A stretch of DNA of 64,000 nucleotides from an uncultured Verrucomicrobiae bacterium (GCA_963841495.1 CAWJDJ010000019.1:41053-105052), one strand, 5' to 3'. Shown: positions 22,634 through 50,473, counted from the stretch's first letter. A program made the numbers and translations. The notes: generated from the letters alone by a model not told the origin.

Positions 22634-22637
22634 GGTG

Positions 22638-29012: not shown

Positions 29013-29252
29013 CGATCATAAGTGGTTTTCGCAAATCAAGAACCTCGGCGGCTGCCAGGCCGCTGTTCACGGATGCTTGAAGGATCCCGGATGAGCACGC
29101 ACCGCGGACCATGAATCGCCGCCGCGCAGTTTCAATCTTCAACGTGAAGCGCGGGACGAGCCGGCGCCGGACTCCGCGGCGGTGAATCACTCTCCAGTTG
29201 GAGACAGGGTCGATGGCTGGCGTTTGGGCTGCAAATTACCCAAAGTCGCGAC

Positions 29253-30305: not shown

Positions 30306-30714
30306 CGCGCCGGCCGGCCGCCGTTGGCGTTCGGGAACACCAAGCCACTGGTGAACTTCCTGTTCCAAATCACCCTGCTGCCCGCATCTCAACAACCCGC
30401 ACCGGGAAATATCGCCCCGCGCACGCTCACCGAAGCAACACGAGAGACGGAGCCAGGACGATAGCGGCACTCGCCTCACGGACACAGAGCTCCTGGATCG
30501 CGCGTCGGCTTTGGGCTGGACTCTATTCTCCCAGGACGAAGATCTCTTCCTCGAGACGGCCCGAATCAAATTGTATTTCTCTGAAGGATTCGCTGCCGGG
30601 TGCGAAACGAGCGATCACCCTGTTCGACCTCCGCCAATTGGCGTCGATCGTGATGGAAACGATAGGCGAGCGAGCAGCTTCCCTCACACATTTTCCGGAA
30701 CGTATCAACCGCCA

Positions 30715-31428
30715 TCATGAGCAATTCACCTTCGGGCGACACTTCCTCACTTTGTCAACCAGCCAGAGGATGCCGCCGCCAACAAGCACCAACGTGCCGT
30801 TCCCCGGCTCTGGGATGACCGGGTCGGGTGAAAACCGAATGCTGTCGATGGCATTGAAACTGTAACCAAAGGTCTGAGTCAATTTCAGTTCCACCTGCTG
30901 CCCGGCCCATGGCGAAACATCCATGGCGACATCCTGGAAAGTCAGGCTGGTATTCTCAGGGTCCCATCCGTTGAGAGGAAGTTGAATACCGTTGATCCGG
31001 ACATCCCACGGCCCTCCCGCTGCATTGTAGTGGAGTGACTTTGCATCTGCTGGGATGTCTCCGACCTGGAGAATGCTCGCAGTGTACTCAATAAATTTTT
31101 GGCTTGTTGCCAAAAACGCAAATTTGCCATCGGCCGGCAGTCCTTGAGGTGTCGAAGTCGCATTGTACAGTGACTGAGCTCCGATGTCTCCAGGCTGGAG
31201 GCCGAAAAAGACCGAAGTGCCCTCAATATCCCCCGCAAATAGCCGCCATCCAGGCATCCAGAAATGCAGGCTCCCAAGGCTCACTCCATCAAGACCAGGG
31301 GGATCAATAATTCCAATTGACGTGTCCCCTTCGTCAAAGTCCAGGTTTACGAATTCGCTGGCGATACCTAACGTGCTCCAACTCAATGCGCCGGCAATGG
31401 ATACAGCTATCTGCAGTTTGAGTTTCAT
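30715..31428 (-). CDS. PEP-CTERM-anchored secreted protein, paralog 1
   Basis: Signal peptide MKLKLQIAVSIAGALSWSTLGIA. C-terminal sorting signal VIPEPGNGTLVLVGGGILWLVDKVRK. The start codon overlaps the stop of the upstream giant-gene fragment (ATGA). Confidence 0.85.
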   Translation of the reverse strand: MKLKLQIAVSIAGALSWSTLGIASEFVNLDFDEGDTSIGIIDPPGLDGVSLGSLHFWMPGWRLFAGDIEGTSVFFGLQPGDIGAQSLYNATSTPQGLPADGKFAFLATSQKFIEYTASILQVGDIPADAKSLHYNAAGGPWDVRINGIQLPLNGWDPENTSLTFQDVAMDVSPWAGQQVELKLTQTFGYSFNAIDSIRFSPDPVIPEPGNGTLVLVGGGILWLVDKVRKCRPKVNCS

Positions 31429-33697
31429 GGTACGTTGATTTTTAGAGATTGAGAGGGATTCCAAAATGACCCGCAACCCGTGTGGGTAAGCGTCGCGGTG
31501 CGAATTTGATAGAAAACATTCGCGGGAGCTGGTGCATCGACGATTTCTGGTACATTTACCGGCGAATTCGACAATTCAACGAATGGACCATCCTCGGTTC
31601 CAGACCTGAGCACACAGTAGCAAGTTTCCGGATTCGAGGCGGGCGTCCACTTCAGTGTGACTTCGGAGCCTACATGGCTCTTGGACCGCAACGTTGGCGG
31701 CTCGACGCCAAACCAGCGAAGCGTTGGATCGCCCAAAATGCCCGCGGCGATCTGTAATGCGCGCTGTGCCGGAAGGGCGCTGCCCCAAAAAGTCCGCCAG
31801 ATAATCATAAAAACTTGTTTGAAAGTCTCCAAGATGATATCCTTGCGCGAAGCGATTGATCGATCCGCCCAGGTTCCAGCAGACCGCCAAACCATAGTCT
31901 TCGGCGGCGAGGAAGCTCTGCAGCATCCCGTCAGTATGCACTTCCGTTGGATGTTGTATTGGTGCGCCGCGCAAATTCCAATCGCCAAACCAGGACCCGT
32001 AGAGATTGGCGAAAGCGATCTTCGGCTGGTGTAGCGGGTCGACCAGGCTCGCAGAATTGACCGTCCCGATCTTATCAATATTTCCGTCGCCCTTTTGAGC
32101 GCCCCAGATATACGCCAGGCTCTTTGTGGCAGCGAATAGATCCCCCTGAGCCAGGCCATGGGCCATATCCTGGGAAAAGAGGACACGGCAAATGTGCTCA
32201 CCGAGACGCATGACTTTATAGGCCATCTCTGTCGGCCGCGATGGGGACTGGCAGGGTCGAAGGAATTGTAATGCAAGTCCTCTTCTTGACACGGGAATCC
32301 GACCGTGTCGGAAGCGGTGGTTCTTGTCGAAATAACGCCTGAGCAAGCCGATCTCGTCGAGCGGAGATCGGTGGATTTCCATAAGACGCAGGTAGGTTAG
32401 CAAAATCGATTCGTCCCACCGCGATTTCCATACGCGTGTCGCCAGTGATCGACATCCGGCGGTTGCGGAATCCTGTCGATTATCCCATTTCTTGTCTCCT
32501 GGAACATTCAGTGTGATAGGGTAGCTTGACGGGAATTTCCTGCGATTTTGCTGAGACGAATCGCGTGCATCGTTCCAGTCGCCCATTCACATCTCCATAG
32601 TAAATATCAGAAGACCAGGCACCAAAATGATTTCCCACGGAGTAGTAATTTGCGTGACCATCGGGTGCGGACATCCCAGTGTAAGGAACTGGAACGTGCC
32701 CGATCAGAATCACGACATTGAGTTCTGGAGGACTGTATTGATTGTACACGCGCACAATCTTCTGCTTGAGCTGATTGATGGCATCGATGTTCGCTTGACT
32801 CCAACTGGCGTCATCGTGGCGAAGCGCCGTCGCAATCCCATCTTCGGTCTCGGTACCATCTTCCACAAGCCACCCGTCCCCGATGAGGTCGCTTTTGAAC
32901 TGCGTCAATTCGGTGTCGAGCCTTTTGGCGGGGTCGGGGTCATGAACCAGCGAATTCTCAACGACAAGGAGCACTCTGCCGCGATTCAGGATGGGAGGAA
33001 TTTGAATGCCCGCGATTATACCCGGGAGAAACGCCCCGGATGCGGATCCGTCCACGTAAAGCTTCTGGAAGCGGTAATCAAAGCGTGTTCCAACTTGCAG
33101 GGCATTTTCACCTTCTTCGGCAGTGGAGTTTGTGTATGCAAATCCTCCCAGCTCAGCCAAGTCATGCCAGGTCGACGTGCCAGTTACGCGACGTTGAATC
33201 TTTATTCCACCATAGGAGCGGATCCCGTAACGCCAATGGAAGGTCAGTCCTGGAGGACTGTCGGATTCTTCGGCATACATGGACTTATCGGACTCGAGTC
33301 CGGTGAAGGATTCGCCAGGATAATTGAAGAGTTCCACTTCATCAATGACGCCGTAACAACTGCTGGAGCCATTGGGGCGACTACCGACGCTGAATCCCGA
33401 TCCGAGAACTGCGGTCGACGGCAGAGGCGTGGGTGATGGAGCGAACACGGCAACGAAGGAGCCGTCCTTCCAGATGCACCAGCGATTGTCCAGAACACCG
33501 AAGACAACCTCGCTCCATTTGCCGTTTAAGAATGCTGGTCCGCCGCTGAACGTGAGAGTCTCACTTTCCGCTTCAAACGTGGCTCCTCCGACTGACACGC
33601 GAATGCCCAGTTTAGTGCCGCTTCCCGGATCAGGAACTCGATGTATCCAGCAGCAGGGTTGCCAATCGGGTCCCCGACGACCAGGAGCGTCGCTTCG
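31425..33697 (-). pseudogene. 5'-truncated, frameshifted paralog (fragment 1) of the giant surface protein gene
   Basis: ORFs 32480..33598, 31576..32586 and 31425..32276 together align to the C-terminal ~730 aa of 38007..44231. The 5' part is near-identical and the last ~1.1 kb is clearly more divergent. Homology stops abruptly at 33697, where a Y1-transposase element begins. Confidence 0.85.
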
Positions 33698-33995
33698 TCA
33701 TGGAAAGAGGGTCACATCTCACACTTTATCAATTGCGAGCTCCCGCTTCAGGCGACCTTTCTCGGTGCGGTCTCGCGCCAATCGCCGTTCGTATCGCTTG
33801 ACGTTGGTCGCCACCACCCCGTAGTTCCGCAACTCCACCCGCCGGGCCAGTTCCGCCAGCTTGAGCCCAAACAACCGCCCCCCAAGATACAACGCCATAT
33901 CCCGTCCCGAGTCGCCATACTGGTCCCGAAACTCCGCCCACTTCCGTCCTTTGACCTCCTCGATCGCACGGATCACAGCCTCAAACGCCGGCCGC
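33698..33995 (-). mobile_element. Partial (3'-end, ~300 bp) copy of the Y1-transposase element
   Basis: Begins with the same terminus tcatggaaagagggtcacatctcacactttatcaattgcg and encodes only the last 85 aa (ORF 33719..33976). It is followed directly by a second copy of the terminus. Confidence 0.8.
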
Positions 33996-34000
33996 GCAGT

Positions 34001-35141
34001 TCATGGAAAGAGGGTCACATCTCACACTTTATCAATTGCGAGCTCCCGCTTCAGGCGACCTTTCTCGGTGCGGTCTCGCGCCAATCGCCGTTCGTACCGC
34101 TTGACGTTGGTCGCCACTACCCCGTCGTTCCGCAATTCCACCCGCCGGGCCAGTTCCGCCAGCTTGAGCCCACACAACCGCCGCCCCAGATACAACGCCA
34201 TATCCCGTCCCGAGTCCCCATACTGGTCCCGAAACTCCGCCCACTTCCGTCCTTTGACCTCCTCGATCGCACGGATCACAGCCTCAAACGCCGGCCGCAC
34301 TGCCAGCAACCGCCGCGCCCCACGCTGCTCCTGCTCATCTCCGCCAATCCAGTTCCGCAAACTTGCCAGGAACTCGCCGCCGCCCAGCACCACTTGCTCC
34401 TGCACCGATTCCCACGGACTCTTCGCCAGCCCCTCCCGCACCGCTGTCTCCACGTAATCCCGCTACTGCCGACGCTGCTCGCCCTGGGATCCGCCACCAA
34501 ATCCGAGCACGGTCCGGCATTCGAGCCATTCGGGAGTCGGCTCCAAGCCGAGGTAGGCCCGATACGAACTCCACCGGCAGCCTCGCAGCAACGCGATCCG
34601 TTCCCGCACGCGGGCCGCGTCGGGAGCGGGGGACAAGCCCACCCGCTGCGCCGCTCGGTCCTCCTTGTCCAAACCCAGCGCTTGGACTCGGACCGGGTTG
34701 AGATGCACGTAGCGGCTCAGCGCCAGCGCCCATTCCTCCGGGCTGACGGCCACCGACTTGAACCGTCCCTGGAACAGATGACCGCTGCGCCCGTGCCGAC
34801 GGTTCAACCACACGCTGCAACTCACGTTCAACCACTGCACGCTCCGGCTCAGGTTGGCTTCGGCCAATTCCAGCATCAGATGGTAATGGTTGTCCATCAG
34901 CACGAATGCATGCAGCCGCACGCGAAACCGATCGCCCATCTCCCCAAGAATTCTCCAGGAAATGCAACCGATCGCGCCCGTCCCGATCAATGGCTTTCCG
35001 TTCGTTACCGCGGGCCGCTGATGTGATACCAACCGCCCGGCTTCTCAAGCCGCAAAGGCCGTGCCACGGGTACGAGGGTATCCCCTTCCGACGGCGCAGC
35101 GCAATTGCATAATTGTGAGATGTGACCCCCGTTCCTACCCC
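34001..35141 (-). mobile_element. Full-length but inactivated copy of the Y1 (IS200/RAYT-like) transposase element
   Basis: Same termini as 48709..49845. The coding region is split (34463..35032 and 34022..34453) by a TAT->TAG nonsense change (RRQ*RDYVE) and an N-terminal frameshift. The HUH motif is intact here (LMDNHYHLML). Confidence 0.85.
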
Positions 35142-35719
35142 ACGGGCCGAGGTTTGACCGGCCCGGGACGGGACGGGATGCGGAACCGCATTCCACGGAA
35201 GGCTCGGCCGCTCGGGTTGCACTCCTGCATTGCCCGATCCTCCGAACCGCGGGGAGAAGGTAAGCACAGCGTCCAGGCGTAGGAAGGCCGAAGGCAGGGA
35301 GCGGCAGTCGGGTTCGCGGCCGAGCTCGTGCCAAGCTGCAGTCCCTGTTGGCCAGCCGCCTGGCCACCGCGCGGGCGTGGAATCTCAAGGAGACCTTCCA
35401 GCACTTCTGGACCTATCGCTCGGTGCACTGGGCAGGTGGGTTCTTGGACTACTGGTGCCAGCGGGCGATGCGCAGCCCCCTGGACCCCATGAAGAAAATC
35501 GCCCGTATGTTACGTACCCACGAGGAACTCCTGCTCAACTGATTTCGGGCTCGGGGCGAAGTCTCCAGCGGCGCGGTCGAGGGACTCAACAACAAGATCC
35601 GAGTGGTCACCAGACGTTCCTACGGCTTCCGTACATACCGCGGCATGGAACTCGCGCTCTACCACAACCTTGGACGTCTACCCGAGCCTCCGCTCACCCA
35701 CAGATTCTGCTGAGGAGGC
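35142..35719 (+). mobile_element. ISL3-family IS remnant (left end removed by the Y1 element)
   Basis: Encodes only the transposase C-terminus (KLQSLLASRLATARAWNLKETFQHFWTYRS...EGLNNKIRVVTRRSYGFRTYRGMELALYHNLG...THRFC) with an internal frameshift. Appears identical (by eye) to 44794..45371. Confidence 0.8.
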
Positions 35720-35819
35720 GGAAACGATAGGCGAGCGAGCAGCTTCCCTCACACATTTTCCGGAACGTATCAACCGCCATCATGAGCAATTCACCTTCGG
35801 GCGACACTTCCTCACTTTG

Positions 35820-36494
35820 TCAACCAGCCAGAGGATGCCGCCGCCGAACAAGCACCAACGTGCCGTTCCCCGGCTCTGGGATGACCGGGTCGGGTGAAAA
35901 CCGAATGCTGTCGATGGCATTGAAACTGTAACCAAAGGTCTGAGTCAATTTCAGTTCCACCTGCTGCCCGGCCCATGGCGAAACATCCATGGCGACATCC
36001 TGGAAAGTCAGGCTGGTATTCTCAGGGTCCCATCCGTTGAGAGGAAGTTGAATACCGTTGATGCGGACATCCCACGGCCCTCCCACTGCATTGTAGTGGA
36101 GTGACTTTGCATCTGCTGGGATGTCTCCGACCTGGAGAATGCTCGCAGTGTACTCAATAAATTTTTGGCTTGTTGCCAAAAACGCAAATTTGCCATCGGC
36201 CGGCAGTCCTTGAGGTGTCGAAGTCGCATTGTACAGTGACTGAGCTCCGATGTCTCCAGGCTGGAGGCCGAAAAAAACAGTGTTTTTCTCGACGCCATTG
36301 CCAAACAGGCGCCATCCGGGCAACCAGTACTCTGTGAGCCCAGCGCTCACGCCATCAAGACCAGGGGGAACCACTACGCCAATGGTCGTGTCGCCTTCGT
36401 CGAAGTCCAAGTTTACGAATGCACTGGCTATCCCTGGCGTGCTCCAACTCAATGCGCCGGCAATGGATAGAGCTATCTGCAGTTTGAGTTTCAT
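35820..36494 (-). pseudogene. PEP-CTERM protein paralog 2 with a 1-nt insertion destroying the C-terminal anchor
   Basis: Matches paralogs 1 and 3 up to VIPEPGNGTLVLV, then reads RRRHPLAG*. The plus strand has gccgccgaacaag versus gccgccaacaag in the other two copies. Confidence 0.8.
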
Positions 36495-36567
36495 GGTACG
36501 TTGATTCTTAGAGATTGAGAGGGGTTCCAAAATGAGCCGCAACCCGTGTGGGTAAGCGTCGCGCTCC

Positions 36568-38035
36568 AATTGATACACAGCGATCCACAGGAATGAGCAA
36601 AAAGTTGCTGGAAGATCGCAGTTGACTCTGCGACACGGCAGAGATGGATAACATCCGCAACCTTCCAGCGCCGTCGAAGCTCTCGTCCTTCGGCAAGTTT
36701 TCAACCTCATTCCCGAGTTCCTGGTTCAGAAGTTGGCTCGGGAAACTGGCGTGGATGAAAAGGCGCGCACATTCAGTCCGTGGAGTCATGTAGTGAGTTT
36801 GGGTTACAGCCATCTGGCGCACGCCATCGGGCTCAATGACGTCAGCGATGCTCTCCAGCTCAACTCCGGTCCGCTGTCTGCGATTCGTGGGGCGACACCG
36901 CCCAGTCGGAACAACCTTTCGTATGCTAATCGCCACCGGGATGCGACCCTGTCGGAGAGACTCTTCTGGGAAGTGTACGAGCATCTGGGAGAGATCTGCC
37001 CGAAGTTTGTCAGCGGAAGAGCGGGTAAGAAGTTTGCGCGGAGATTCCAGCGGACGATCCATGTCGTGGACTCGACCACGATTGAGTTGGTTGCCTCGTG
37101 CATGGATTGGGCGAAGCACCGCCGGCGCAAGGCGGCCGCGAAGTGCCATCTGCGCCTGGACCTGCAGAGTTTTCTGCCGCGCTTCGCGATCATCGACACG
37201 GCGCGTGAGGCTGACGCCAAGCGTGCACGGGAGGTCTGTGCGGACATCAAGGAGGGCGAAATCGCCATATTTGACAAGGCTTACGTGGACTTCGGACACC
37301 TGGGAGATCTGGAGTTACGCGGGGTGGTGTGGGTGACGCGTGCCAAAGAGAACCTGAGCTACGAGGTGAGAGAGACGTACCCGGTGCCTGACGGCGGCAA
37401 AGTGGTCAAAGACGAGTTGATTGCGTTAACGAACGCGGCTTCTCAGAAAGCGTATCCGGATCTTTTGCGTCGTGTAGAGGTGTGGGTGGAAGTGGACGGA
37501 AAAGAGAAATTGATGACCTTCCTGACCAATCAACTGACTTGGAGTCCGCAAAGCGTGGCGGACCTGTATCGGTGTCGGTGGCGCATCGAGGTGTTCTTTA
37601 AGCAGATGAAGCAGACGCTGCAGTTGTCGGATTTCCTGGGGACCAGCGCCAACGCAGTACGCTGGCAAATCTGGACGGCCTTGCTGGTCTATCTGTTGCT
37701 CAGATATCTGGCTTTTCAGTCAAACTGGAAACACAGCTTCAGTCGGCTATTTGCCGTGATACGAACGGGACTATGGAGAAAGTGGGATCTGATAAGTCTC
37801 TTGGAACTATATGGGACAGCCAAGAGCAGCCCCCGTTACCTTGCGCATACCGAGCAGGCCTATTTCCCTGGATTCGCGTGATCCCGTGGGACAGCCACCG
37901 CGCAAAACGAATAGCGAATCTTTCCGGAGGGACAGATGATCTGAAAAGTCTTAAACCACTTCCGCGCCACGGCCCTAAAATCCCTCGGAAAACCGCAGGA
38001 TTACCCTTAGGTTTTGCTATCTATGGGATGACAGC
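36568..38035 (+). mobile_element. IS4-family insertion sequence inserted 24 codons before the stop of the giant gene
   Basis: Boundaries come from comparison with the uninterrupted paralogous junction at 46225-46232 (gcgctcc|gaatttgatagg). Terminal inverted repeats are not obvious by eye. Confidence 0.75.
36733..37881 (+). CDS. IS4-family DDE transposase (DUF4372 N-terminal + DDE_Tnp_1)
   Basis: DDE contexts HVVDSTTIEL, IAIFDKAYVDF and YRCRWRIEVFFKQMKQ. The conserved N-terminal VFNLIPEFLVQKLARETG lies upstream of the first usable start (TTG 36733). The ATG at ~36643 is in another frame, so a frameshift is possible. Confidence 0.8.
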   Translation: MARETGVDEKARTFSPWSHVVSLGYSHLAHAIGLNDVSDALQLNSGPLSAIRGATPPSRNNLSYANRHRDATLSERLFWEVYEHLGEICPKFVSGRAGKKFARRFQRTIHVVDSTTIELVASCMDWAKHRRRKAAAKCHLRLDLQSFLPRFAIIDTAREADAKRAREVCADIKEGEIAIFDKAYVDFGHLGDLELRGVVWVTRAKENLSYEVRETYPVPDGGKVVKDELIALTNAASQKAYPDLLRRVEVWVEVDGKEKLMTFLTNQLTWSPQSVADLYRCRWRIEVFFKQMKQTLQLSDFLGTSANAVRWQIWTALLVYLLLRYLAFQSNWKHSFSRLFAVIRTGLWRKWDLISLLELYGTAKSSPRYLAHTEQAYFPGFA

Positions 38036-41000: not shown

Positions 41001-44000
41001 GAGGGCCCTCCAGGTGGTTCCGTCGAAGCCCGCCAGCGGGTTCACCCAGAAGACCACGGAGAAGTCCGTATTGTTCTTTCCCACCTCCAGAACCGGAGCG
41101 TTCGCCACGGCCACCAGGTCATCGATGCCGTCCAGAACCAGGCAGCCGCCGACCTGGCCGTTGGCATCCCAAAGCGGTCCATTGGCAAGCGTTCCATTGA
41201 GGGCATTGGCGGAGCTGTCCGCGGCCTGTGTGCCGCCAGTTTCGTCGAATCTCCAAAGCCCGACCAGGCCGTTGGGATCCGGGCCCGCCGACGGGTAGTG
41301 GAAGCCGCAGTCGACGGTGGAGTTGAGTTCCTTTTGTTGATCGGCGCGCGTGGTGAAGTGGTACAGGCCGGCGGCAATTGCGCTCCGGCTTCCAACATCG
41401 GACAGCGACGCGAGGCTGGGTGAGGCGCCGATGGAGGGATAATAGTAGCGGCCGAGCGGGCCGCGCACAAAGTCCAGTGTCAGACCGGTCCTGGGATTGG
41501 AGCCAAAGGAGCCAAGACCACTGCGGAAGGCATTGTGGGAGACGGTTCCGTTCGAGACTGAAGTGGTGAGCGCGTCTCCCGCGAAGAGGTTGTCCCGGAT
41601 CAGCCACACGCCGGAGGTATCTGATGGACTGCTCAAGCTGAACGTTCTCGTCCGGAACAAATTGTTGTAGGCTGTAAACTGGACGGGATAATAGCCGGCT
41701 GTATACTGTTGAGAGATACTGTACTTCCCGTTCTCAAAGAGACTGTTGAACAGCGTAATGGAGATTCCCGGCTTACTTCCAGACGCAGCAAATCCCAAGT
41801 TACGAAGAATGCAATGGCTGACGGTGAACTGAAACGAGCCGTTGGATACAATGCGAATCAATTGTCGGCGGTTCGCGTTCGTTTCGCCAAGAACTCCAAC
41901 TTCGGTAAAGGCAAGATTGATGTCCGCGTAAGGCGTGCTTGAGTTGACACCCAAATCCAAAAGGCCCACTGTTCCAGAACTCGGGAACCATTCTGTTGGT
42001 GGATCCGATTTCTCTTGGACGGCGTTGTAACGTACAATCCTGTTGTAAGCGGTGGCGGTCCCCTGAGAATCCAGCTTGCCGCCGCGGCCCACGATGATCC
42101 CGCTATTGCCGTAAACGCCGAGGGCCACCCCGTTTGTCAATCGCAACGTCGCCTGATCCAGGTGGAGCACGGAAACACAGTAGTCCAGAGTAGGATAGTG
42201 ATATCCAAGATCCGGAGTATTGACATCCCGGATGTTTCTTGCCGCCAGCGTGGTGTCTGTCGTGAAGTCATTGGGCCAGACCAGGGGTCCATACGTCGTC
42301 AGTGACTTTAGATCCTGGGCCAGGTCCGGGCTGATCTGCGGGACCCCGGCATTCCGAAAGGCGCTGCCCGGGGCGAGATAGCAGGCCCCGGCGCCAATGC
42401 TTTCGAACACGCCCGAATCACTGGCGATTTCCTGATTCCCGGTCCCTCCGTAGGCCGGGATGGAGGTCACGTGGACTATCAGGCTATTGGTCAGATTCAA
42501 GGTGGCGCCATTGAAAAGGGTCCAGACATCGTGAAGGGTCAGGTGTTCCCCTGCGAAGGGAGTGTTGATTCCGGAGAATGCATAGGCGCCCGAATGGTCA
42601 ATCAAGACGTTTTGGAGCCTGACCGGTGTGATGACGGTGCCGGTATTCTCAATGGCGACGCGCGACCTGACGATCTGGCAATGCCGGACCACGTTCGATG
42701 GATTGTTCCCTTTAAAGGAGATTCCGTGATAGCCATGCTTGATCCGGACGTCTTCCACGAGGATCGGCACACCGGCGTCCACGAACCTGAGGGGATACCA
42801 GCCGTAGTCGACGTTGGAATCGGGAGAACCGGAGAGGACCTCCGCGCCAACGGTGTTGTCATCCTCTGCGGTGAACACCGCTGGAAAGTAGCTGGTGGTG
42901 GTGGAGACAAAAGGTCCGTTGACGGTGACGCCGTTGTAGTTGTTGACGTTCCACCGGTTGAACTTGATGACCGTCCCGCCCTCCAAGGTGGTCGTTCCCG
43001 TGAACCAGCAGTTCCCCGTGACGTGATAGGTCTCGTCGCACAAGAAGATGTAGTTCGGCGAACCGGTCAGGATGCTCGTGTAGTCGACCACAACACCGGC
43101 GCGTCCTGAATGGCTCTGTGCCAGACGGATCGGACGAGTTTCGGATGAGGCCCGACACCGAGGTCGCTTCAAATGGGGTGGGCAATAGGGGTCGGGTTCG
43201 TCCAGGTTTTGACGCTGCCCGGAACCGTGCGCCTTATCCGCACCCGTGGCGGCCCACATCCGGGCGACCTCGCGCAACGACTCGATGTCCGCTGGGGCGC
43301 CGGGTAACGCCAGAAGATCCTGCAATATCGCGGCGAACTGAACCGATTCGACCAGGATGGCGCCGTGTTTGTCCTCCGTTGGGATCCACTTCTTGCCGAC
43401 CGGCGGAAAGGCATCCGGGTCGCGCTCGGCGACGTCCTTTGCCGACCAGGCGAACGCCCGGCCCTGCGCGATGCGGCTGGGACCGAAATCCAGTTCCTCA
43501 TCGACCCAGTCCGGATCCGCGACACTCGCCCGTTCCACCGGATCTTCGATGCTTGCGAGCACCCGTTCGTGCTTCACCGGTTGGGGTGGGTCGAAGAATT
43601 CAGTGAATACGAGCAGGCGGGTCTTTTGCGGATCGAAGCCGAAATTGGCGGGCGATGGCGGCACCTCGCGGAGAACGACATCCGCCTCAATGCCCCTCTT
43701 GCGGTAGGTGTAGAGGACATCGGCATCCAGGCCGTTGAACGCCTTGCGATAGAGGACCTGGTTGGGCGGCAGAAGTTCACCGGACGCGTCCTGCACGGTT
43801 GCGAGGATGGCCTCCTGTCCACTGACCGGATCGAAGTAACCGATGGCAAGGACCGAACTGCGAAGACGCACGGTGTGCTGGATCTCGACATCCAGCGCGC
43901 CCGCGGGGTCATTGACATTGGAAAAGAAAATCGCCTGGTGCTGGCCATGCACGGCAACCGCGCCAGACTGCGTGATCTCGATCTCCTCCCGAGCCGGCGT

Positions 44001-44231
44001 CCATGCCTTGACCTCCTGATCGAAATAGTTCAGGCCGTCCTCGAGCTGAATCCAGGAGTTTGTGATCGAAATCAGTTCCCCGGAGTCGTCAGGCTCGAGC
44101 GAGATCCGTTGCAGGACATTCTGGTTGGGACCCCTTTCCAGCACGGTGACGTCATCTTCTGCCGCAGGCGCAAGCCGACCGCAAGCCATCAAACCGACCG
44201 TTGCCAGAACCACCAGCGAACTTTGCTTCAT
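38007..44231 (-). CDS. Giant secreted/lipoprotein-like surface protein (beta-helix region, two LamG-type domains, TSP3-like Ca-binding repeats, C-terminal conserved domain + Fn3-like domain)
   Basis: Single 2086-aa ORF (2074 aa from MKQSSLVVLATVGLMACG, a lipobox-like signal). Laminin-G_3-like block LVGLWRFDETGG...LDDLQVYSRALS. Acidic repeat DTDNDGLADYVEDANGNG...DVDSDHDSQSD. The native C-terminus is replaced by 8 IS-derived codons. Confidence 0.85.
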   Translation of the reverse strand: MKQSSLVVLATVGLMACGRLAPAAEDDVTVLERGPNQNVLQRISLEPDDSGELISITNSWIQLEDGLNYFDQEVKAWTPAREEIEITQSGAVAVHGQHQAIFFSNVNDPAGALDVEIQHTVRLRSSVLAIGYFDPVSGQEAILATVQDASGELLPPNQVLYRKAFNGLDADVLYTYRKRGIEADVVLREVPPSPANFGFDPQKTRLLVFTEFFDPPQPVKHERVLASIEDPVERASVADPDWVDEELDFGPSRIAQGRAFAWSAKDVAERDPDAFPPVGKKWIPTEDKHGAILVESVQFAAILQDLLALPGAPADIESLREVARMWAATGADKAHGSGQRQNLDEPDPYCPPHLKRPRCRASSETRPIRLAQSHSGRAGVVVDYTSILTGSPNYIFLCDETYHVTGNCWFTGTTTLEGGTVIKFNRWNVNNYNGVTVNGPFVSTTTSYFPAVFTAEDDNTVGAEVLSGSPDSNVDYGWYPLRFVDAGVPILVEDVRIKHGYHGISFKGNNPSNVVRHCQIVRSRVAIENTGTVITPVRLQNVLIDHSGAYAFSGINTPFAGEHLTLHDVWTLFNGATLNLTNSLIVHVTSIPAYGGTGNQEIASDSGVFESIGAGACYLAPGSAFRNAGVPQISPDLAQDLKSLTTYGPLVWPNDFTTDTTLAARNIRDVNTPDLGYHYPTLDYCVSVLHLDQATLRLTNGVALGVYGNSGIIVGRGGKLDSQGTATAYNRIVRYNAVQEKSDPPTEWFPSSGTVGLLDLGVNSSTPYADINLAFTEVGVLGETNANRRQLIRIVSNGSFQFTVSHCILRNLGFAASGSKPGISITLFNSLFENGKYSISQQYTAGYYPVQFTAYNNLFRTRTFSLSSPSDTSGVWLIRDNLFAGDALTTSVSNGTVSHNAFRSGLGSFGSNPRTGLTLDFVRGPLGRYYYPSIGASPSLASLSDVGSRSAIAAGLYHFTTRADQQKELNSTVDCGFHYPSAGPDPNGLVGLWRFDETGGTQAADSSANALNGTLANGPLWDANGQVGGCLVLDGIDDLVAVANAPVLEVGKNNTDFSVVFWVNPLAGFDGTTWRALMQKGISVTERTFTLFLRPDSDRLHYCVSTTANGNENYGSTGALPLGQWTHAALVKEGMDLRLYLDGILDSEHVLPAPVRHNTYPLYIGGCPGTSRARVKLDDLQVYSRALSPQEIAAAAAEGPRDTDNDGLADYVEDANGNGTTESTETAIDDVDSDHDSQSDAEERAEGTDPLSNTDYLPTRLAHFRFDTDDLRGDEGQLPLQASGIEHVDTLDGKGVKFPAGALLRYPCVDAAGHASVYPKSFGARLLFKPDGWSSGSLPGGTEASLLVVGDPIGNPAAGYIEFLIRGSGTKLGIRVSVGGATFEAGSETLTFSGGPAFLNGKWSEVVFGVLDNRWCIWKDGSCVAVFAPSPTPLPSTAVLGSGFSVGSRPNGSSSCYGVMDEVELFNYPGESFTGLESDKSMYAEESASPPGLTFHWRYGIRAYGGIKIQRRVTGTSTWHDLAELGGFAYTNSTAEEDENRLQVGTRFDYRFQKLYVDGSASGAFLPGVIAGIQTPPILNRGRVLLVVENSLVHDPDPAKRLDTELTQFKSDLIGDGWLVEDGTETEDGIATAPRHDDASWSQANIDAINQLKQKIVRVYNQYSPPELNVVILIGHVPVPYTGMSAPDGHDNYYSVGNHFGAWSSDIYYGDVDGSWSDARDYEKAPMPVSYPITLNIKKDGKFDDRSIPQKPPISDGNTRMEIAVGRIDFANLPVFGNPPISVDEIGLLRRYFNKNHRFRRGLIPVSARGLSYTSFDPASQLFLERDDYRHAFGEHVVFPLFPGIASRFAQADLFAATKSLTYIWGTQSGSGNIDKIGPVNAASLVDRLHQPKVAFAQLHGSWFGDWNLRGAEPEPPQQLHSDGLLQSFLATEDYGLAVCWNLGGSISRFAQGYHLGDFQTSYFDYLGDLVGVSDPVLKSVPITAGILGDPTLRWPGVGPPILRSAVRNGSSVTLTWTPAFEPETRYYVLRSESEDGPFMELSNSPVNVPEIVDAPAPANVSYQIRCHPIDSKT

Positions 44232-44436
44232 GAGGTCTGCCTTGCTGAGTCTATCCGATAGCAACACGGGCGCGGCAATTCAGGTCCCGAGGGGTAAAAT
44301 GGATCAAAACCGGGACAAAATGGATAAGTCGTTGTGATCCTGAGCGTTCGCTGGACTGTTAGTTGCTCAATTATGGCACTTTGCGACGAACAGCGCACCG
44401 AAGGTTCGACGGGCAACGCTAAAACTCCGTAATCGA

Positions 44437-44484
44437 CGAAAAAGCGTAACCGTCCGGCACGATGGGTCCGCCGGACGGTTACGC
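44437..44484 (-). terminator. Rho-independent terminator (minus strand)
   Basis: Perfect 14-bp stem gcgtaaccgtccgg / ccggacggttacgc with a 13-nt loop, followed on the minus strand by TTTTTCG. Confidence 0.65.
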
Positions 44485-44660
44485 ACCAGGTGCAGGTTTC
44501 CATCAGTCGGTGCATTCTCGATCTCGAGGTCGTTGCCAAAGCCGCTGAACCGACGGACCTACGCAATCAAATTGTATTTCTCTGAAGGATTCGCTGCCGG
44601 GTGCGAAACGATCGATCACCCTGTTCGACCTCCGCCAATTTGCGTCGCCCGTGATGGAAA

Positions 44661-45371
44661 TGAGGCTCTGTAGCAGGATTTGTGGGTGAAAGTCGCGCAG
44701 TTTGGAAGGGGTCGTGCGCCGGGAGAAGATGGCGGCCTTCGGCCGGGGTGTTGGATGAGTTTACCGCTTTACGCCATGGATTGCGGAGGCATCCCGGGCC
44801 GAGGTTTGACCGGCCCGGGACGGGACGGGATGCGGAACCGCATTCCACGGAAGGCTCGGCCGCTCGGGTTGCACTCCTGCATTGCCCGATCCTCCGAACC
44901 GCGGGGAGAAGGTAAGCACAGCGTCCAGGCGTAGGAAGGCCGAAGGCAGGGAGCGGCAGTCGGGTTCGCGGCCGAGCTCGTGCCAAGCTGCAGTCCCTGT
45001 TGGCCAGCCGCCTGGCCACCGCGCGGGCGTGGAATCTCAAGGAGACCTTCCAGCACTTCTGGACCTATCGCTCGGTGCACTGGGCAGGTGGGTTCTTGGA
45101 CTACTGGTGCCAGCGGGCGATGCGCAGCCCCCTGGACCCCATGAAGAAAATCGCCCGTATGTTACGTACCCACGAGGAACTCCTGCTCAACTGATTTCGG
45201 GCTCGGGGCGAAGTCTCCAGCGGCGCGGTCGAGGGACTCAACAACAAGATCCGAGTGGTCACCAGACGTTCCTACGGCTTCCGTACATACCGCGGCATGG
45301 AACTCGCGCTCTACCACAACCTTGGACGTCTACCCGAGCCTCCGCTCACCCACAGATTCTGCTGAGGAGGC
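44661..45371 (+). mobile_element. Internally deleted ISL3-family element retaining both inverted repeats
   Basis: Left IR ggctctgtagcaggatttgtgggtga versus the reverse complement of the right end gcctcctcagcagaatctgtgggtga. Only the transposase C-terminal ~110 codons remain. The empty site is visible in unit 1 at ~30655 (gtgatggaaa|cgatagg). Confidence 0.8.
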
Positions 45372-45431
45372 GGAAACGATAGGCGAGCGAGCAGCTTCCC
45401 TCACACATTTTCCGGAACGTATCAACCGCCA

Positions 45432-46160
45432 TCATGAGCAATTCACCTTCGGGCGACACTTCCTCACTTTGTCAACCAGCCAGAGGATGCCGCCGCCAAC
45501 AAGCACCAACGTGCCGTTCCCCGGCTCTGGGATGACCGGGTCGGGTGAAAACCGAATGCTGTCGATGGCATTGTAGTTTCCCGGCTGATTGTAAGCGCCG
45601 AGGATCTGGGTCAACTTCAGTTCCACCTGCTGACCAGCCCATGGCGAAACATCCACGGCGACATCCTGGAAAGTCAGGCTGGTATTCTGAGGGTCCCATC
45701 CGTTGAGAGGGAGTTGAATACCGTTGATGCGCACATCCCAAGATCCTCCCACGGCTTGATAGTGCAGTGACTTCGAATCTGCCGGAACGTCCCCGACTTG
45801 GAGCAGCGAAGCCGCAGAGTCGGGAAAAGCAGGCCGCGTCGCCAGGAATGCAAATTTTCCTTCGGCCGGCAGTCCTTGGGGTGTTGAAGTTCCATCGTAC
45901 AGTGATTGCGACCCAAAGTCTCCAGGCTGGAGGCCGAAAAAAACAGTGTTTTTCTCGACGCCATTGCCAAACAGGCGCCATCCGGGCAACCAGTACTCTG
46001 TGAGCCCAGCGCTCACGCCATCAAGACCAGGGGGAACCACTACGCCAATGGTCGTGTCGCCTTCGTCGAAGTCCAAGTTTACGAATGCACTGGCTATCCC
46101 TGGCGTGCTCCAACTCAATGCGCCGGCAATGGATAGAGCTATCTGCAGTTTGAGTTTCAT
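45432..46160 (-). CDS. PEP-CTERM-anchored secreted protein, paralog 3
   Basis: Signal peptide and intact anchor (VIPEPGNGTLVLVGGGILWLVDKVRK). The N-terminal third matches paralog 2 and the middle is the most divergent of the three. Start overlaps the upstream fragment stop (ATGA). Confidence 0.85.
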   Translation of the reverse strand: MKLKLQIALSIAGALSWSTPGIASAFVNLDFDEGDTTIGVVVPPGLDGVSAGLTEYWLPGWRLFGNGVEKNTVFFGLQPGDFGSQSLYDGTSTPQGLPAEGKFAFLATRPAFPDSAASLLQVGDVPADSKSLHYQAVGGSWDVRINGIQLPLNGWDPQNTSLTFQDVAVDVSPWAGQQVELKLTQILGAYNQPGNYNAIDSIRFSPDPVIPEPGNGTLVLVGGGILWLVDKVRKCRPKVNCS

Positions 46161-48708
46161 GGTACGTTGATTCTTAGAGATTGAGAGGGGTTCCAAAATG
46201 AGCCGCAACCCGTGTGGGTAAGCGTCGCGCTCCGAATTTGATAGGAAACATTCGCGGGGGCTGGTGCATCGACGATTTCTGGTACGTTCACCGGCGAATT
46301 CGACAATTCCATAAATGGACCGTCCTCGCTCTCCGACCTGAGCACGTAATAGCGGGTTTCCGGTTCAAAGGCAGGAGTCCAGGTCAGTGTCACGCTGGAT
46401 CCATTTCGAACAGCCGATCGCAGGATTGGCGGCCCAACGCCAGGCCAGCGAAGCGTTGGATCGCCCAAAATGCCGGCCGTGATTGGAACAGACTTGAGGA
46501 CAGGATCGGATACACCAACTAAATCCCCTAGGTAATCAAAGTAGCTTGTTTGAAAATCGCCAAGATGATATCCTTGCGCGAAGCGACTGATCGATCCGCC
46601 CAGGTTCCAGCAGACCGCCAAACCATAGTCTTCGGTGGCGAGGAAGCTCTGCAGCAAGCCGTCGGAGTGAAGCTGCTGTGGAGGTTCCGGTTCAGCGCCC
46701 CGCAGATTCCAATCGCCAAACCACGAACCATGCAGTTGGGCGAATGCAACCTTCGGTTGATGTAGTCGATCAACAAGGCTCGCCGCGTTCACTGGTCCAA
46801 TTTTGTCGATATTGCCGGAGCCCGACTGAGTGCCCCAGATATAGGTAAGGGACTTCGTGGCAGCAAACAGATCCGCTTGAGCAAAGCGGCTGGCGATTCC
46901 TGGGAAAAGAGGAAACACGACATGCTCGCCGAACGCATGCCTGTAGTCATCTCTTTCCAAGAATAACTGACTCGCAGGATCAAACGAAGTGTAACTCAAT
47001 CCTCTCGCCGAAACCGGAATGAGGCCCCGACGGAACCGGTGGTTCTTGTTGAAATACCGCCTGAGCAAGCCAATCTCGTCGACAGAGATCGGCGGATTTC
47101 CAAAGACCGGTAGATTTGCAAAATCAATTCGGCCAACGGCAATTTCCATGCGCGTATTGTGGTCTGTGGCTTCCGCAATAGCATCTTCATCGAATTTTCC
47201 ATCATTTGTGTCATTTGTGGTGATCGAATAACTGACGGGCATGGGGGCGAGGAGATATTCGCTCGCATCGTGCCAAACTCCATCCAGATCCCCATAGTAA
47301 ACGTCAGAAGACCAGGCCCCAAAATGATTTCCCACGGAGTAATAATTTGCGTGACCATCGGGTGCGGACATCCCAGTGTAAGGAACTGGAACGTGCCCGA
47401 TCAGAATCACGACATTGAGTTCTGGAGGACTGTATTGATTGTACACGCGCACGATCTTCTGCTTGAGCTGATTGACGGCATCGATGTTCGCTTGACTCCA
47501 ACTGGCGTCATCGTGGCGAGGCGCCGTCGCAATCCCATCTTCGGTCTCGGTACCATCTTCCACAAGCCACCCGTCCCCGATGAGGTCGCTTTTGAACTGC
47601 GTCAATTCGGTGTCGAGCCTTTTGGCGGGGTCGGGGTCATGAACCAGCGAATTCTCAACGACAAGGAGCACTCTGCCGCGATTCAGGATGGGAGGAGTTT
47701 GAATGCCCGCGATTATACCCGGGAGAAACGCCCCGGATGCGGATCCGTCCACGTAAAGCTTCTGGAAGCGGTAATCAAAGCGTGTTCCAACTTGCAGGGC
47801 ATTTTCACCTTCTTCGGCAGTGGAGTTTGTGTATGCAAATCCTCCCAGCTCAGCCAAGTCATGCCAGGTCGACGTGCCAGTTACGCGACGTTGAATCTTT
47901 ATTCCACCATAGGAGCGGATCCCGTAACGCCAATGGAAGGTCAGTCCTGGAGGACTGTCGGATTCTTCGGCATACATGGACTTATCGGACTCGAGTCCGG
48001 TGAAGGATTCGCCAGGATAATTGAAGAGTTCCACTTCATCCATGACGCCGTAACAGCTGCTGGAGCCATTGGGGCGACTACCGACGCTGAATCCCGATCC
48101 GAGAACTGCGGTCGACGGCAGAGGCGTGGGTGATGGAGCGAACACGGCAACGCAGGAGCCGTCCTTCCAGATGCACCAGCGATTGTCCAGAACACCGAAG
48201 ACAACCTCGCTCCATTTGCCGTTTAAGAATGCTGGTCCGCCGCTGAACGTGAGAGTCTCACTTCCCGCTTCAAACGTGGCTCCTCCGACTGACACGCGAA
48301 TGCCCAGTTTAGTGCCGCTTCCCCGGATCAGGAACTCGATGTATCCAGCAGCAGGGTTGCCAATCGGGTCCCCGACGACCAGGAGCGACGCTTCGGTTCC
48401 ACCAGGGAGACTCCCACTGGACCAGCCGTCGGGTTTGAAGAGAAGGCGGGCGCCAAAGCTCTTTGGGTACACACTGGCATGGCCGGCAGCATCGACACAC
48501 GGGTAGCGAAGTAGCGCGCCTGCCGGAATCTTCACTCCCTTCCCGTCGAGAGTGTCCACATGTTCAATTCCTGAGGCCTGCAATGGCAATTGTCCCTCGT
48601 CCCCGCGCAGATCATCCGTATCAAAACGGAAATGGGCCAGTCGTGTCGGCAAGTAGTCCGTGTTGGAGAGGGGATCGGTGCCTTCGGCCCGCTCTTCGGC
48701 GTCGCTCT
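46157..48708 (-). pseudogene. 5'-truncated paralog (fragment 3) of the giant surface protein gene, open for 857 codons
   Basis: Near-identical to the C-terminal ~850 aa of 38007..44231 except for a variable patch. Retains the native C-terminus ...SATLTHTGCGSFWNPSQSLRINVP. Homology ends at 48708, and the ORF start codon (48730) lies inside the Y1 element terminus. Confidence 0.85.
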
Positions 48709-49845: not shown

Positions 49846-50473
49846 GAACGCCTCGCGAACCAGCCGTCCACCGCGACGTCGGTAAATGGGTTGCCGGCAT
49901 CCGGCCGGCTGACGTCCAGTTTGACTTCAAGAAAGTCGTAGGCCTCGACCGACGGGCTGGACTGCGAGAAGTGAATTTCGGCCGGGTTGGCATGCCCCGC
50001 CATCGGTGCGCCCGCCAGCAGAAAAAAGCTGCGGACAATTGGACTTAGAGCCCGTCTGAAAAGGAGGAATGGAGCTGCGAGGAGGGATTCTGTGCGAGAC
50101 CCGCGCGGCGAGACCGGAGCATCCCCGTCCCGCAGCGCGGGATGACGGTCGAGCCAATCCCGCAGCCGCGGGACCTCGCGCAAAAGACCCGTCGCCCGGA
50201 GGATTTTCCAATCGATCATAAGTGGTTTTCGCAAATCAAGAACCTCGGCGGCTGCCACGCCGCTGTTCACGGATGCTTGAAGGGTCCCGGATGAGCACGA
50301 ACCGCGGACCATGAGTCGCCGCCGCGCAGTTTCAATCTTCAACGTGAAGCGCGGGACGAGCCGGCGCCGGACTCCGTGGTGCCAGTCTGGCCGGGAGTGG
50401 TCCCGGGCGATTCCGGGACGTTCGGGCCTGAGCGGGTTCGGGCGCCATCCGAGGCGCCGACAAAGGATGCTGG
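49846..50473. repeat. Direct duplicate of 28641..29179 plus 29446..29540 (5' end of the DUF5060 gene, repeat M2, start of the esterase gene), with a 266-bp internal deletion
   Basis: Readable base-by-base alignment with few mismatches. The chimeric ORF 49602..50636 repeats AEIHFSQSSP.VEAYDFLEVKLDVSRPDAGNPFTDVAVDGWFARR. Contains MITE copy M3 at ~50048-50212. Confidence 0.85.

Follow-up and report, generated by a model that had tools for sequence, protein, structure and literature searches.

Probable decay with ectopic gene conversion in a tandem array of giant secreted-protein and PEP-CTERM-family genes on a Verrucomicrobiota chromosome

Three copies of a two-gene module

We analyzed a window of 64,000 nucleotides from a single genome sequence of an uncultured Verrucomicrobiae bacterium. 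Its minus strand carries three tandem copies of a module in which the stop codon of a giant secreted-protein gene overlaps (ATGA) the start codon of a PEP-CTERM-family gene, termed here the partner gene. The module encodes a secreted LamG/beta-helix/TSP3/C25-like protein of ~2,090 aa and a PEP-CTERM-family protein of ~240 aa. The copies are spaced 5–10 kb apart in direct orientation, and the whole array spans 18 kb. The G+C of the unit was 0.54–0.57, compared with 0.65 in the flanking core genes. ORF and repeat maps located all three units and their overlaps where the preliminary description had placed them. The features of the units are as follows.

30564–30659: block Y, native 3′ flank of the partner gene, directly after unit 1; repeated at 44565–44660 and following the partner gene in L001
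30715–31428, minus strand: P1, partner gene of unit 1, intact, 237 aa (P0004)
31425–33697, minus strand: gC1, giant-gene remnant of unit 1, 5′-truncated and frameshifted
35820–36494, minus strand: P2, partner gene of unit 2, with one extra C at 35846
36491–36567, minus strand: final 24 codons and stop codon of the giant gene in unit 2, which IS4 has displaced; the ATGA overlap with the P2 start is kept
36568–38035, plus strand: IS4-family insertion of 1468 bp, counting an imperfect 9-bp target duplication (NF033592, PF01609)
38036–44231, minus strand: G2, giant gene of unit 2, the sole copy with a 5′ end (Pfam, ORF scan)
44482–44660: native partner-gene 3′ flank (Y plus 83 bp), located 215 bp upstream of G2; tandem operon-operon junction
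45432–46160, minus strand: P3, partner gene of unit 3, intact, 242 aa (P0001)
46157–48708, minus strand: gC3, giant-gene fragment of unit 3, 5′-truncated and in frame, matching the final 850 codons of the native gene

The overlap lies at 31425–31427 (stop) and 31428–31426 (ATG) in unit 1, at 36494–36491 in unit 2 (read directly in the sequence), and at 46157–46159 (stop) and 46160–46158 (ATG) in unit 3; it is predicted to couple translation of the partner gene to that of the giant gene. The 5′ end of the giant gene is retained in unit 2 only, and the outer copies (units 1 and 3) lack the 5′ 60–65% of the gene. Every giant copy carries damage. The mobile-element lesions in the array comprise two TIRYT copies and one fragment, the IS4 element, and two ISL3 remnants. 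Immediately upstream of G2 is the 3′ flank native to the partner gene (Y plus 83 bp, matching L001), and the array therefore appears to have originated as tandem operons.

In unit 1, the partner gene is intact and the giant gene is 5′-truncated and frameshifted, as previously described, and the damage exceeds what that description implied. The reading frame of gC1 follows the path 2,3,2,3,1,2,3,1 over 32713–31428, and an additional GGGG-to-GGG deletion lies near 33625, so that at least eight frameshifts are present in total. The 5′ kilobase of gC1 was 98–100% identical to units 2 and 3, and its 3′ 1.1 kb was 62–84% identical.

The G2 product starts with a signal peptide or lipobox-like N-terminus and ends in a beta-sandwich; in addition, it has LamG domains, TSP3 repeats, a beta-helix region and a weakly matched C25-like alpha/beta domain. 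The ORF at 38007–44267 comprises 2086 codons counted from a GTG, with a likely ATG at 44231, and it continues to 38007 via eight IS-encoded codons. The IS4 transposase ORF (36733–37881, plus strand) is intact, scoring 231.9 bits against NF033592 (cut-off 115) and E 6e-26 against PF01609. The 1468-bp block is missing from the equivalent site of unit 3, marking it as a discrete insertion. The two copies of the imperfect 9-bp target duplication, TATCAAATT and TATCAATT, differ by AAA versus AA. Terminal inverted repeats were sought at the insertion ends and were not clearly resolved. We assign the element to the IS4 family on the basis of the transposase match and the discrete insertion with a target duplication, and it is a simple insertion 24 codons ahead of the giant stop. 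Thus, the full-length giant gene, the IS4 element and the frameshifted partner anchor reported for unit 2 all stand, but the element does not replace the last 24 codons, which survive downstream at 36491–36567. The extra C at 35846 shifts the P2 frame and destroys the C-terminal anchor.

The third unit agreed with its earlier description as an intact partner gene with a 5′-truncated giant gene open for 857 codons (46157–48730). The first seven of these codons are the transposon end, and homology to the giant gene begins at 48708. gC3 is without a signal peptide.

The partner protein has an N-terminal signal peptide and a C-terminal tail of the form VIPEP-GNGTLVLVGGGILWLV-DKVRKCRPKVNCS. In 40 aligned relatives of the partner, the PEP was invariant, with a hydrophobic stretch and then a tail rich in Arg behind it. 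PEP-CTERM proteins and their role as exosortase substrates were reportedly described by Haft et al. in 2006. The partner resembles such substrates in its signal peptide, PEP motif, hydrophobic stretch and basic tail, and it is predicted to end in a PEP-CTERM tail (PEP, hydrophobic helix, basic cluster, at the extreme C-terminus). In contrast to such substrates, the copies in the window have tails that have diverged beyond what the HMMs recognize: P1, P3 and the isolated tail gave no match to TIGR02595 or PF07589 even at E = 10. Among the 40 full-length relatives, PF07589 matched 20 and TIGR02595 matched 14. A Pfam scan found no exosortase gene among the about 45 ORFs of the window.

The gene pair was also found elsewhere. 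In L004, which belongs to another lineage, a giant gene of 42% identity is separated by 2 nt from a downstream partner gene of 38% identity, which shows that the module is real and conserved. No giant fragment was found next to the partner gene in L001, and partner genes thus also persist alone. The protein collection contained no intact close homologue of the giant protein, and it contained the partner paralogue P0002. Two partner alleles from other contigs, P0002 and P0003, recombine the same two haplotypes in further ways. L001, an independent contig from a different sample, carries Z end fragments (see below), an ISL3 end, the partner gene and Y in another arrangement.

Mobile elements at the borders of the copies

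The copies are bordered by the following elements and fragments.

27217–29190, minus strand: intact glycoside-hydrolase-like gene (DUF5060 plus apiosidase-like; Pfam)
33698–34000, minus strand: additional copy of the TIRYT element's final ~298 bp, abutting gC1
34001–35142, minus strand: Z(1), TIRYT copy, a pseudogene with two 1-nt insertions
35143–35720, plus strand: W, ISL3 3′ fragment cut off by Z(1), encoding a transposase C-terminus with an in-frame stop
44661–45372, plus strand: internally deleted ISL3 element, 712 bp, with 18–26-nt terminal inverted repeats, between P3 and Y
48709–49841, minus strand: Z(3), intact TIRYT element; gene at 48727–49770 (347 aa)
49841–50471, minus strand: X and X′, duplicated hydrolase 5′ fragment with upstream DNA, cut off by Z(3)

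The element Z is 1.13 kb long, and its 36-nt terminal inverted repeats (48710–48745 and 49803–49838 in Z(3)) are 83% complementary and contain GGGGTCAC. The TGA of the Z(3) gene overlaps the GTG with which the gC3 ORF begins. The gene product has a Y1_Tnp domain (PF01797, E 6.7e-9, 36 bits versus a cut-off of 23), scores 49.8 bits against NF047646 REP_Tyr_transpos, under the cut-off of 80, and shows a weak DnaA_C-like match at residues 235–335 (E 0.07). It has more than 4,500 relatives, many of which are in Verrucomicrobiota and are named RayT or transposase. Terminal-inverted-repeat-associated tyrosine transposases (TIRYTs) form subclass 2.1 of the HuH Y1 enzymes; their repeats contain GGGG[AT][CG]A[CG], their C-terminus is DnaA_C/HTH-like, and they are without REP arrays (PMC6006769). 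They are related to RAYT/TnpA_REP (PMC2817692, PMC3337134). Z shares with them the Y1_Tnp domain, the DnaA_C-like C-terminus, the motif-containing inverted repeats and the lack of REP arrays, and we therefore class it as a TIRYT-class Y1 HuH element that fits the published description (PMC6006769). It differs in being multi-copy, in leaving solo 3′-end fragments of 298–388 bp, and in marking the deletion borders of adjacent genes. An assignment of Z as a RAYT, a single-copy gene amid abundant REP/REPIN, was rejected, since two copies and a fragment lie in 16 kb, more occur in L001, and dispersed REP copies are absent.

Both 5′-truncated giant copies start exactly at the right end of a Z-type element. 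The same Z 3′ end (...TGTGAGATGTGACCCTCTTTCCA) was found joined to six different sequences; two of them lie in the giant gene, at separate points that correspond to positions 40519 and 40206 of unit 2. Within the window, the 15-mer of the Z end occurred at Z ends only.

The ISL3 remnants sit downstream of two partner genes, and W showed zero differences from 44795–45372. Only the C-terminal part of the transposase is encoded (PF01610 positions 134–237 of 240, E 1.2e-27), indicating a defective, internally deleted member of the ISL3 family. The 5′ end of the hydrolase gene (block X, 28641–29176) is duplicated at 49841–50376 with 97.2% identity over 536 bp (self-BLAST).

Mosaic structure and selection on the divergent blocks

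The preliminary description of near-perfect but mosaic identity over kilobases was borne out far beyond chance: the 462 variable sites fell into 74 runs of site patterns, compared with a minimum of 196 in 10,000 permutations. One run comprised 277 consecutive sites at which unit 2 equals unit 3; unit 1 equals unit 2 at 72 sites. Tracts with zero differences, up to 1.2 kb long, adjoin blocks that are just 62–71% identical. Identical tracts were found between units 2 and 3 (926 + 316 bp, contiguous over the IS site, and further tracts of 565 and 703 bp), units 1 and 3 (343 + 176 bp, a 520-bp near-perfect stretch common to both truncated copies), and units 1 and 2 (190 + 216 bp). Unit 2 is itself a mosaic, with blocks I and IV equal to unit 3 and the middle of the partner gene equal to unit 1. 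With tracts common to all three pairs, the copies have exchanged sequence, and decay without exchange, which had been put forward as the refuting outcome, fails. The partner gene and the part of the giant gene that encodes the C-terminus hold the divergent blocks; this is also the region that evolves fastest between genera (27% identity versus 48% for the N-terminal half of the giant protein). A search for a recombination-initiating feature found none, and G4 motifs were not associated with the locus.

P1 and P3 gave a dN/dS of 0.25 (dS 0.5), the in-frame pieces of gC1 and gC3 gave 0.16–0.36, and the hypervariable patch of the giant gene gave 0.09–0.44 with a pS of up to 0.71. In every interval compared, dN/dS was 0.09–0.54 with a saturated dS, and the dS of the divergent blocks was 0.5–2. 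No sign of diversifying selection appeared in the variable segments, dN/dS being below 1 throughout. These values indicate that the divergent blocks are old, once-functional alleles under purifying selection rather than products of hypermutation. A diversity-generating retroelement target, which would show adenine-specific substitutions, was also rejected, as all bases are evenly represented among the 61 mismatches of the hypervariable patch.

Origin of the array

We consider the locus to be probably a decaying tandem array with ectopic gene conversion. Starting from the observed anatomy, junctions, mosaic, selection regime and gene-pair conservation, we infer an order of events with RecA-type conversion as the mechanism. 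The outer giant genes would have lost their 5′ ends when TIRYT elements inserted and the element copies then recombined or the DNA between them was deleted. The middle copy would have received the IS4 insertion recently, and it carries a +1 frameshift in the partner anchor. Given the spacing and direct orientation of the copies, ordinary homologous recombination would repeatedly overwrite patches of one copy with another, leaving zero-difference tracts beside blocks that retain old divergent alleles. Such an array resembles known cases of ectopic gene conversion or concerted evolution in its direct repeats a few kb apart, its patchwork of identical and divergent segments, the involvement of all copy pairs and the lack of a need for dedicated machinery; it differs in being a giant/PEP-CTERM-partner operon of Verrucomicrobiota in which each copy is also damaged by mobile elements.

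The patchwork could instead be an assembly artefact, with strain variants or a collapsed or expanded repeat misjoined and the frameshifts being sequencing errors. The source may be a metagenome-assembled genome, and in two lesions a short run differs by one base (GGGG to GGG in gC1, AAA to AA in the IS4 target duplication). However, the junctions of every unit are unique and involve different elements and flanks, frames of 6.2 kb (G2) and 2.5 kb (gC3) are open, and the zero differences of units 2 and 3 over 926 + 316 bp point to a low error rate. The gC1 frameshifts fall within a block that is also 30–38% divergent, and the same building blocks recur, rearranged, in L001 from another sample; an artefact is hence highly improbable. 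Import of the divergent blocks by horizontal transfer and allelic replacement from other strains, making the mosaic mainly inter-genomic, is a possibility that we regard as somewhat doubtful. It would suit the species-level divergence of the blocks (dS 0.5–2), the two partner haplotypes shared with other contigs and the low G+C relative to the core genes, but it does not account for the stretches without any difference between resident copies; these call for exchange within the genome or for duplication in the very recent past. Import and intragenomic exchange are not mutually exclusive.

Unit 2 might also be an expression locus for which units 1 and 3 are silent modules, replacing the C-terminal ~850 aa and the partner by homologous recombination. 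One 5′-complete gene is flanked by two 3′ fragments that lack a promoter, point the same way and each have a partner gene of their own; this arrangement has the look of cassettes or orphan modules and speaks against the decay reading. So do the openness of gC3 over 850 codons, the position of unit 2 as the hub of the two largest common tracts, as expected of an expression site receiving donor segments (unit 3 in blocks I and IV, unit 1 in the partner middle), and the coincidence of the divergent blocks with the fastest-evolving region. Purifying selection on both intact partner alleles would also fit, as would the recombinant P0002 and P0003. Orphan cdiA-CT/cdiI and rhs-CT/rhsI modules provide a documented precedent (PMC3150448), likewise with a giant gene and a small coupled partner, 5′-truncated fragments with partners in the same orientation, IS elements nearby, and a polymorphic C-terminus and partner. 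In the present array, however, the partner belongs to the PEP-CTERM family and is secreted and anchored at its C-terminus, unlike a cytoplasmic immunity protein, one fragment lies upstream of the full gene, and one is heavily frameshifted. A CDI (CdiA/CdiI) or Rhs toxin locus was itself rejected: FHA, VENN and YD/Rhs signatures and a toxin domain are absent, and Pfam and NCBIfam gave only Laminin_G_3, TSP3_bac and a weak Peptidase_C25. Cassette-based antigenic variation is known from Neisseria pilE/pilS, Borrelia vlsE and Anaplasma msp2. The array shares with these systems a single full-length locus, promoterless partial copies and segmental mosaicism, but it has only two cassettes, transposon-made borders at two positions without a common conserved border, dN/dS below 1, and no initiating element or associated G4 motif, and it occurs in a free-living or environmental lineage. 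Of the two potential donors, gC3 is in frame and gC1 cannot donate an open C-terminus because of its frameshifts; the sole 5′-complete gene is disrupted by IS4 and its partner is frameshifted. Furthermore, the two truncated copies share the 520-bp near-perfect tract, and a bystander hydrolase fragment was duplicated likewise. We therefore regard a functional reservoir as unlikely.

The earlier proposal had offered a decaying tandem array or an expressed locus with silent cassettes. The former is well supported by the damage to all giant copies, the mobile-element lesions, the duplicated hydrolase fragment and the many frameshifts of unit 1, and the latter is neither required nor specifically supported. 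Ordinary decay of a genome, accompanied by gene conversion, is thus the best reading of the locus, rather than a demonstrated system of programmed variation.

A working orphan-module reservoir for an exosortase-linked surface complex, in which truncated C-termini and co-varying partners recombine into the single 5′-complete gene, is quite improbable. If it did exist, the outermost ~850 residues of a giant adhesin would be swapped along with its anchor partner, a CDI/Rhs-like or pilS-like strategy so far undescribed in Verrucomicrobiota or for PEP-CTERM proteins, and TIRYT ends would create the promoterless modules. With decay and gene conversion as the preferred reading, the giant protein is probably no longer made in functional form, and P1 and P3 may still be.

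Anatomy of the array and its surroundings

The array was mapped from a self-BLAST of the window, ORF lists and translations, in plus-strand coordinates. All genes of the three units are on the minus strand, and the ATGA overlap between the stop codon of the giant gene and the start codon of its PEP-CTERM-family partner gene was found in all three.

Features of the array and adjoining genes
27217-29190, minus, hydrolase gene
29253-30305, plus, esterase gene
30564-30659, block Y (native 3' flank of the partner gene)
30715-31428, minus, P1, unit 1 partner gene
31425-33697, minus, gC1, unit 1 giant remnant
33698-34000, extra 3'-end piece of element Z
34001-35142, Z(1), Z copy beside unit 1
35143-35720, W, ISL3 fragment
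35820-36494, minus, P2, unit 2 partner gene
36491-36567, minus, displaced giant tail of unit 2
36568-38035, IS4
38036-44231, minus, G2, unit 2 giant gene
44482-44660, Y plus 83 bp
44661-45372, internally deleted ISL3
45432-46160, minus, P3, unit 3 partner gene
46157-48708, minus, gC3, unit 3 giant fragment
48709-49841, Z(3), Z copy beside unit 3
49841-50471, duplicated 5' fragment of the hydrolase gene

The unit coordinates and descriptions in the preliminary description held, but its claim that an IS4 element replaces the last 24 codons of G2 did not. This was a simple insertion: the codons persist downstream of the IS4, adjoining an imperfect 9-bp target duplication. The IS4 retains an intact transposase gene and a nearly intact target duplication; no convincing pair of IS4 terminal inverted repeats was found. 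A promoter and terminator scan of 30450-50400 gave counts equal to the shuffle expectation and was uninformative, and no G-quadruplex motif was linked to the upstream region of unit 2.

The left flank carries housekeeping genes (htrA-like, pta, bioD/F/A-like, and NAD kinase) at 65% G+C; the G+C content is ~60% from 12 kb on and 54-57% within the units. A gene for a putative Uma2-family restriction endonuclease (10782-11363) lies where G+C falls from ~0.65 to ~0.60 and may mark the edge of a genomic island. The region 12573-26787 is likely a secondary-metabolite or RiPP-type cluster.

Genes in the 12573-26787 cluster
14249-15217, MbnB/TglH/ChrH-family enzyme
15204-16283, TauD dioxygenase
16368-17315, GSCFA protein
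17581-19266 and 20906-22867, two AMP-binding enzymes
23860-25602, carbamoyltransferase
25681-26787, Zn-dependent dehydrogenase

The right flank contains several gene fragments and another transposase remnant, indicating that the array sits in a plastic region. A series of apparently truncated genes was observed at 52072-62575.

Apparently truncated genes at 52072-62575
52072-52833, PAS and HisKA without the ATPase domain
58351-59310, DDE_Tnp_1 fragment
59734-61023, MFS transporter without the first ~75 profile positions
61892-62575, outer-membrane efflux protein fragment

A dispersed repeat of ~139 bp (78-88% identity) occurs in both orientations at 26912-27049, 28849-28986, 50049-50186, and 56043-56195, one copy lying upstream of the hydrolase gene or in its 5' part. 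It is related to a 241-bp repeat pair (54430-54670 and 56076-56316), and both look MITE- or REP-like. The 241-bp repeat separates a receiver-domain ORF (53911-54357) from a sigma-54 AAA+/HTH_8 ORF without a receiver (54708-55886); the two resemble parts of an NtrC-type regulator gene interrupted by insertion of a small repeat.

Element Z, ISL3 remnants and the truncated copies

Z is a discrete element of 1.13 kb, whose two ends are the same in Z(1), Z(3), and the related contig L001, each time next to unrelated DNA. It has imperfect terminal inverted repeats of 36 nt, and its gene product is a Y1_Tnp protein of 347 aa whose tail is weakly DnaA_C-like; this protein family has over 4,500 members, often on ~1.2-kb contigs. 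The inverted repeat holds GGGGTCAC, which matches the consensus GGGG[AT][CG]A[CG] described for the TIRYT elements in HuH subclass 2.1 (PMC6006769).

gC3 is bordered by the 3' end of Z at the unit 2 equivalent of 40519, and gC1 by a Z-end fragment at the equivalent of 40206, 313 bp further in. Since the truncation points are 313 bp apart, the two fragments have different transposon-made borders and no hidden register exists between units 1 and 3. For the same reason, we discarded a '303-bp coincidence', in which a 303-bp Z-end duplicate in unit 1 stands opposite giant sequence in unit 3. Three independent Z/giant junctions were also rejected, because the Z end in L001 joins an ISL3 end remnant and not giant DNA. 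On their other sides, Z(3) adjoins the truncated duplicate of the neighbouring hydrolase gene, and Z(1), itself frameshifted, adjoins a truncated ISL3. Recombination or deletion involving element copies would be expected to give such junctions, whereas purpose-built cassette borders would look different. The locus offers a clean case of TIRYT elements at deletion borders.

Solo 3'-terminal fragments of Z (298-388 bp) were observed in the window (33698-33995) and in L001 (2620-2999 and 6891-7278). Their 3' end is constant and their 5' ends are variable, which suggests one-ended or abortive events of Z and bears on the movement of these little-studied Y1 elements. At 48725-48731, the TGA of the intact Z(3) transposase overlaps the GTG opening the 857-codon gC3 frame (GTGTGA), so that the signal-less gC3 and P3 could share a transcript with the transposase and might even be coupled to it in translation.

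W encodes the C-terminal portion of an ISL3 transposase (PF01610, E 1.2e-27); it and the adjacent 135 bp make up an internally deleted ISL3 of 712 bp that has inverted repeats of its own. L001, an independent contig from another sample, has a partner gene (83% amino acid identity) and no giant DNA; in its place, the ISL3 end remnant precedes the ATG by 13 nt, and one full Z and two Z-end fragments are also present. The stand-alone partner gene lies amid three toxin-antitoxin-like DUF433/DUF5615 gene pairs (L001 334-4751).

The native 3' flank of the partner gene, after both P1 and the L001 partner, is Y plus 83 bp. The same segment is present 215 bp upstream of the G2 start, with only the ISL3 insertion between it and P3, as would be expected at the junction of two tandem operon copies. 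In the simplest history that we infer, two or three tandem giant-partner operons would have received ISL3 and Z insertions, the outer giant genes would have lost their 5' parts through Z-associated deletions, and IS4 insertion and then a +1 frameshift in P2 would have followed.

Exchange between copies and the reading of the locus

Three-way alignment and site-pattern analysis resolved the copies into mosaic blocks.

Mosaic blocks (unit 2 coordinates)
I, 40206-39852: unit 2 equals unit 3
II, 39769-39396: unit 1 equals unit 3; unit 2 ~5% different
III, ~39140-38960: all three differ (44-69% identity)
IV, 38960-36276, spanning the IS4 site: unit 2 equals unit 3 (277 consecutive sites, zero differences); unit 1 62-84% identical
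V, 36251-35923, mid partner gene: unit 1 equals unit 2; unit 3 66-88% identical

All three copies have the same 3' end. The site patterns formed 74 runs, compared with at least 196 in 10,000 permutations. Exact tracts were shared by units 2 and 3 (926 + 316 bp; 565 bp; 703 bp including the ISL3 fragment), units 1 and 3 (343 + 176 bp), and units 1 and 2 (190 + 216 bp). At least three or four exchange events are required, involving all copy pairs, the two truncated ones included. The partner alleles P0002 and P0003 of other contigs are further recombinants of the same two haplotypes.

The dN/dS ratio was 0.25 for P1 and P3 (dS 0.5), 0.16-0.36 for the in-frame pieces of gC1 and gC3 (dS 0.5-1.0), and 0.09-0.44 for the hypervariable patch of the giant gene in units 2 and 3 (pS 0.71). 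Substitutions in this patch, which the predicted model places in a low-confidence loop spanning residues 444-522 in the alpha/beta domain, showed no base bias, and the lack of adenine bias ruled out DGR hypermutation. The divergent blocks are old alleles, shaped as functional genes and shuffled afterwards, not products of hypermutation or diversifying selection. gC1 subsequently gathered at least eight frameshifts and has therefore been dead for a long time; P1, directly downstream, remained intact.

We consider the locus to be probably a decaying tandem array still under ordinary ectopic gene conversion. A cassette or orphan-module system, in which recombination with partial copies would vary the surface protein, is unlikely. 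The array architecture, the unit 2 mosaic, and a gC3 frame open over 850 codons are in its favour, but there are just two partial copies, one unusable, their borders are transposon-made, and they exchange with each other; moreover, diversifying selection is absent, the presumed expression locus is damaged, and a bystander gene fragment is duplicated likewise. If true, this reading would extend recombinational surface variation to environmental Verrucomicrobiota. That the arrangement arose by misassembly is very improbable, as every junction is distinct, kilobase-scale perfect tracts and long open frames indicate a low error rate, and the same parts were seen independently in L001. On present evidence, the locus represents ordinary though instructive decay with concerted evolution. 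It also carries a caution for annotation: identity over kilobases does not denote intact duplicated genes here but results from gene conversion between damaged copies.

The giant and partner proteins

G2 has a signal-peptide- or lipobox-like N-terminus (MKQSSLVVLATVGLMAC), Laminin_G_3 domains (E 2.5e-29), TSP3-type repeats, and a Peptidase_C25 match below threshold; relatives with 37-48% identity occur in Limisphaerales and Verrucomicrobiales MAGs, by which the window is assigned to Verrucomicrobiota. The AlphaFold models were poor, with a pLDDT of 58 (partner) and 60 (gC3). The low-confidence model of the giant's last 850 residues comprises a jelly roll, an Ig-like sandwich, an alpha/beta domain, and a terminal beta-sandwich, and Foldseek with the gC3 model returned only lectin/LamG-like jelly-roll folds. 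PDB sequence searches with the giant and partner proteins gave no match.

The partner had no direct match to family models. Its profile search retrieved 1,390 representative clusters, whose ~230-aa proteins aligned over their full length. An alignment of 40 of these relatives has an invariant PEP motif, after which come a hydrophobic stretch and an Arg-rich tail; 20 of the 40 matched PF07589 and 14 matched TIGR02595. By this homology, the PEP-CTERM label appears justified, despite the diverged tails of the window's own copies.

In L004, which represents another lineage, a giant gene (42% identity) is followed 2 nt on by a partner gene (38%); the partner gene is absent beside more distant giant homologues. 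A contig search of the genome collection with the partner protein yielded only an unrelated 27% match in a Vitreoscilla MAG, and that of the metagenome collection with the partner alignment yielded no match. These results document an unannotated, conserved two-gene module, consisting of a giant LamG/C25-like secreted protein and an ATGA-coupled PEP-CTERM-family partner. The gene pair leads to a testable idea: the partner may tether to the surface a giant protein that has no sorting signal of its own.
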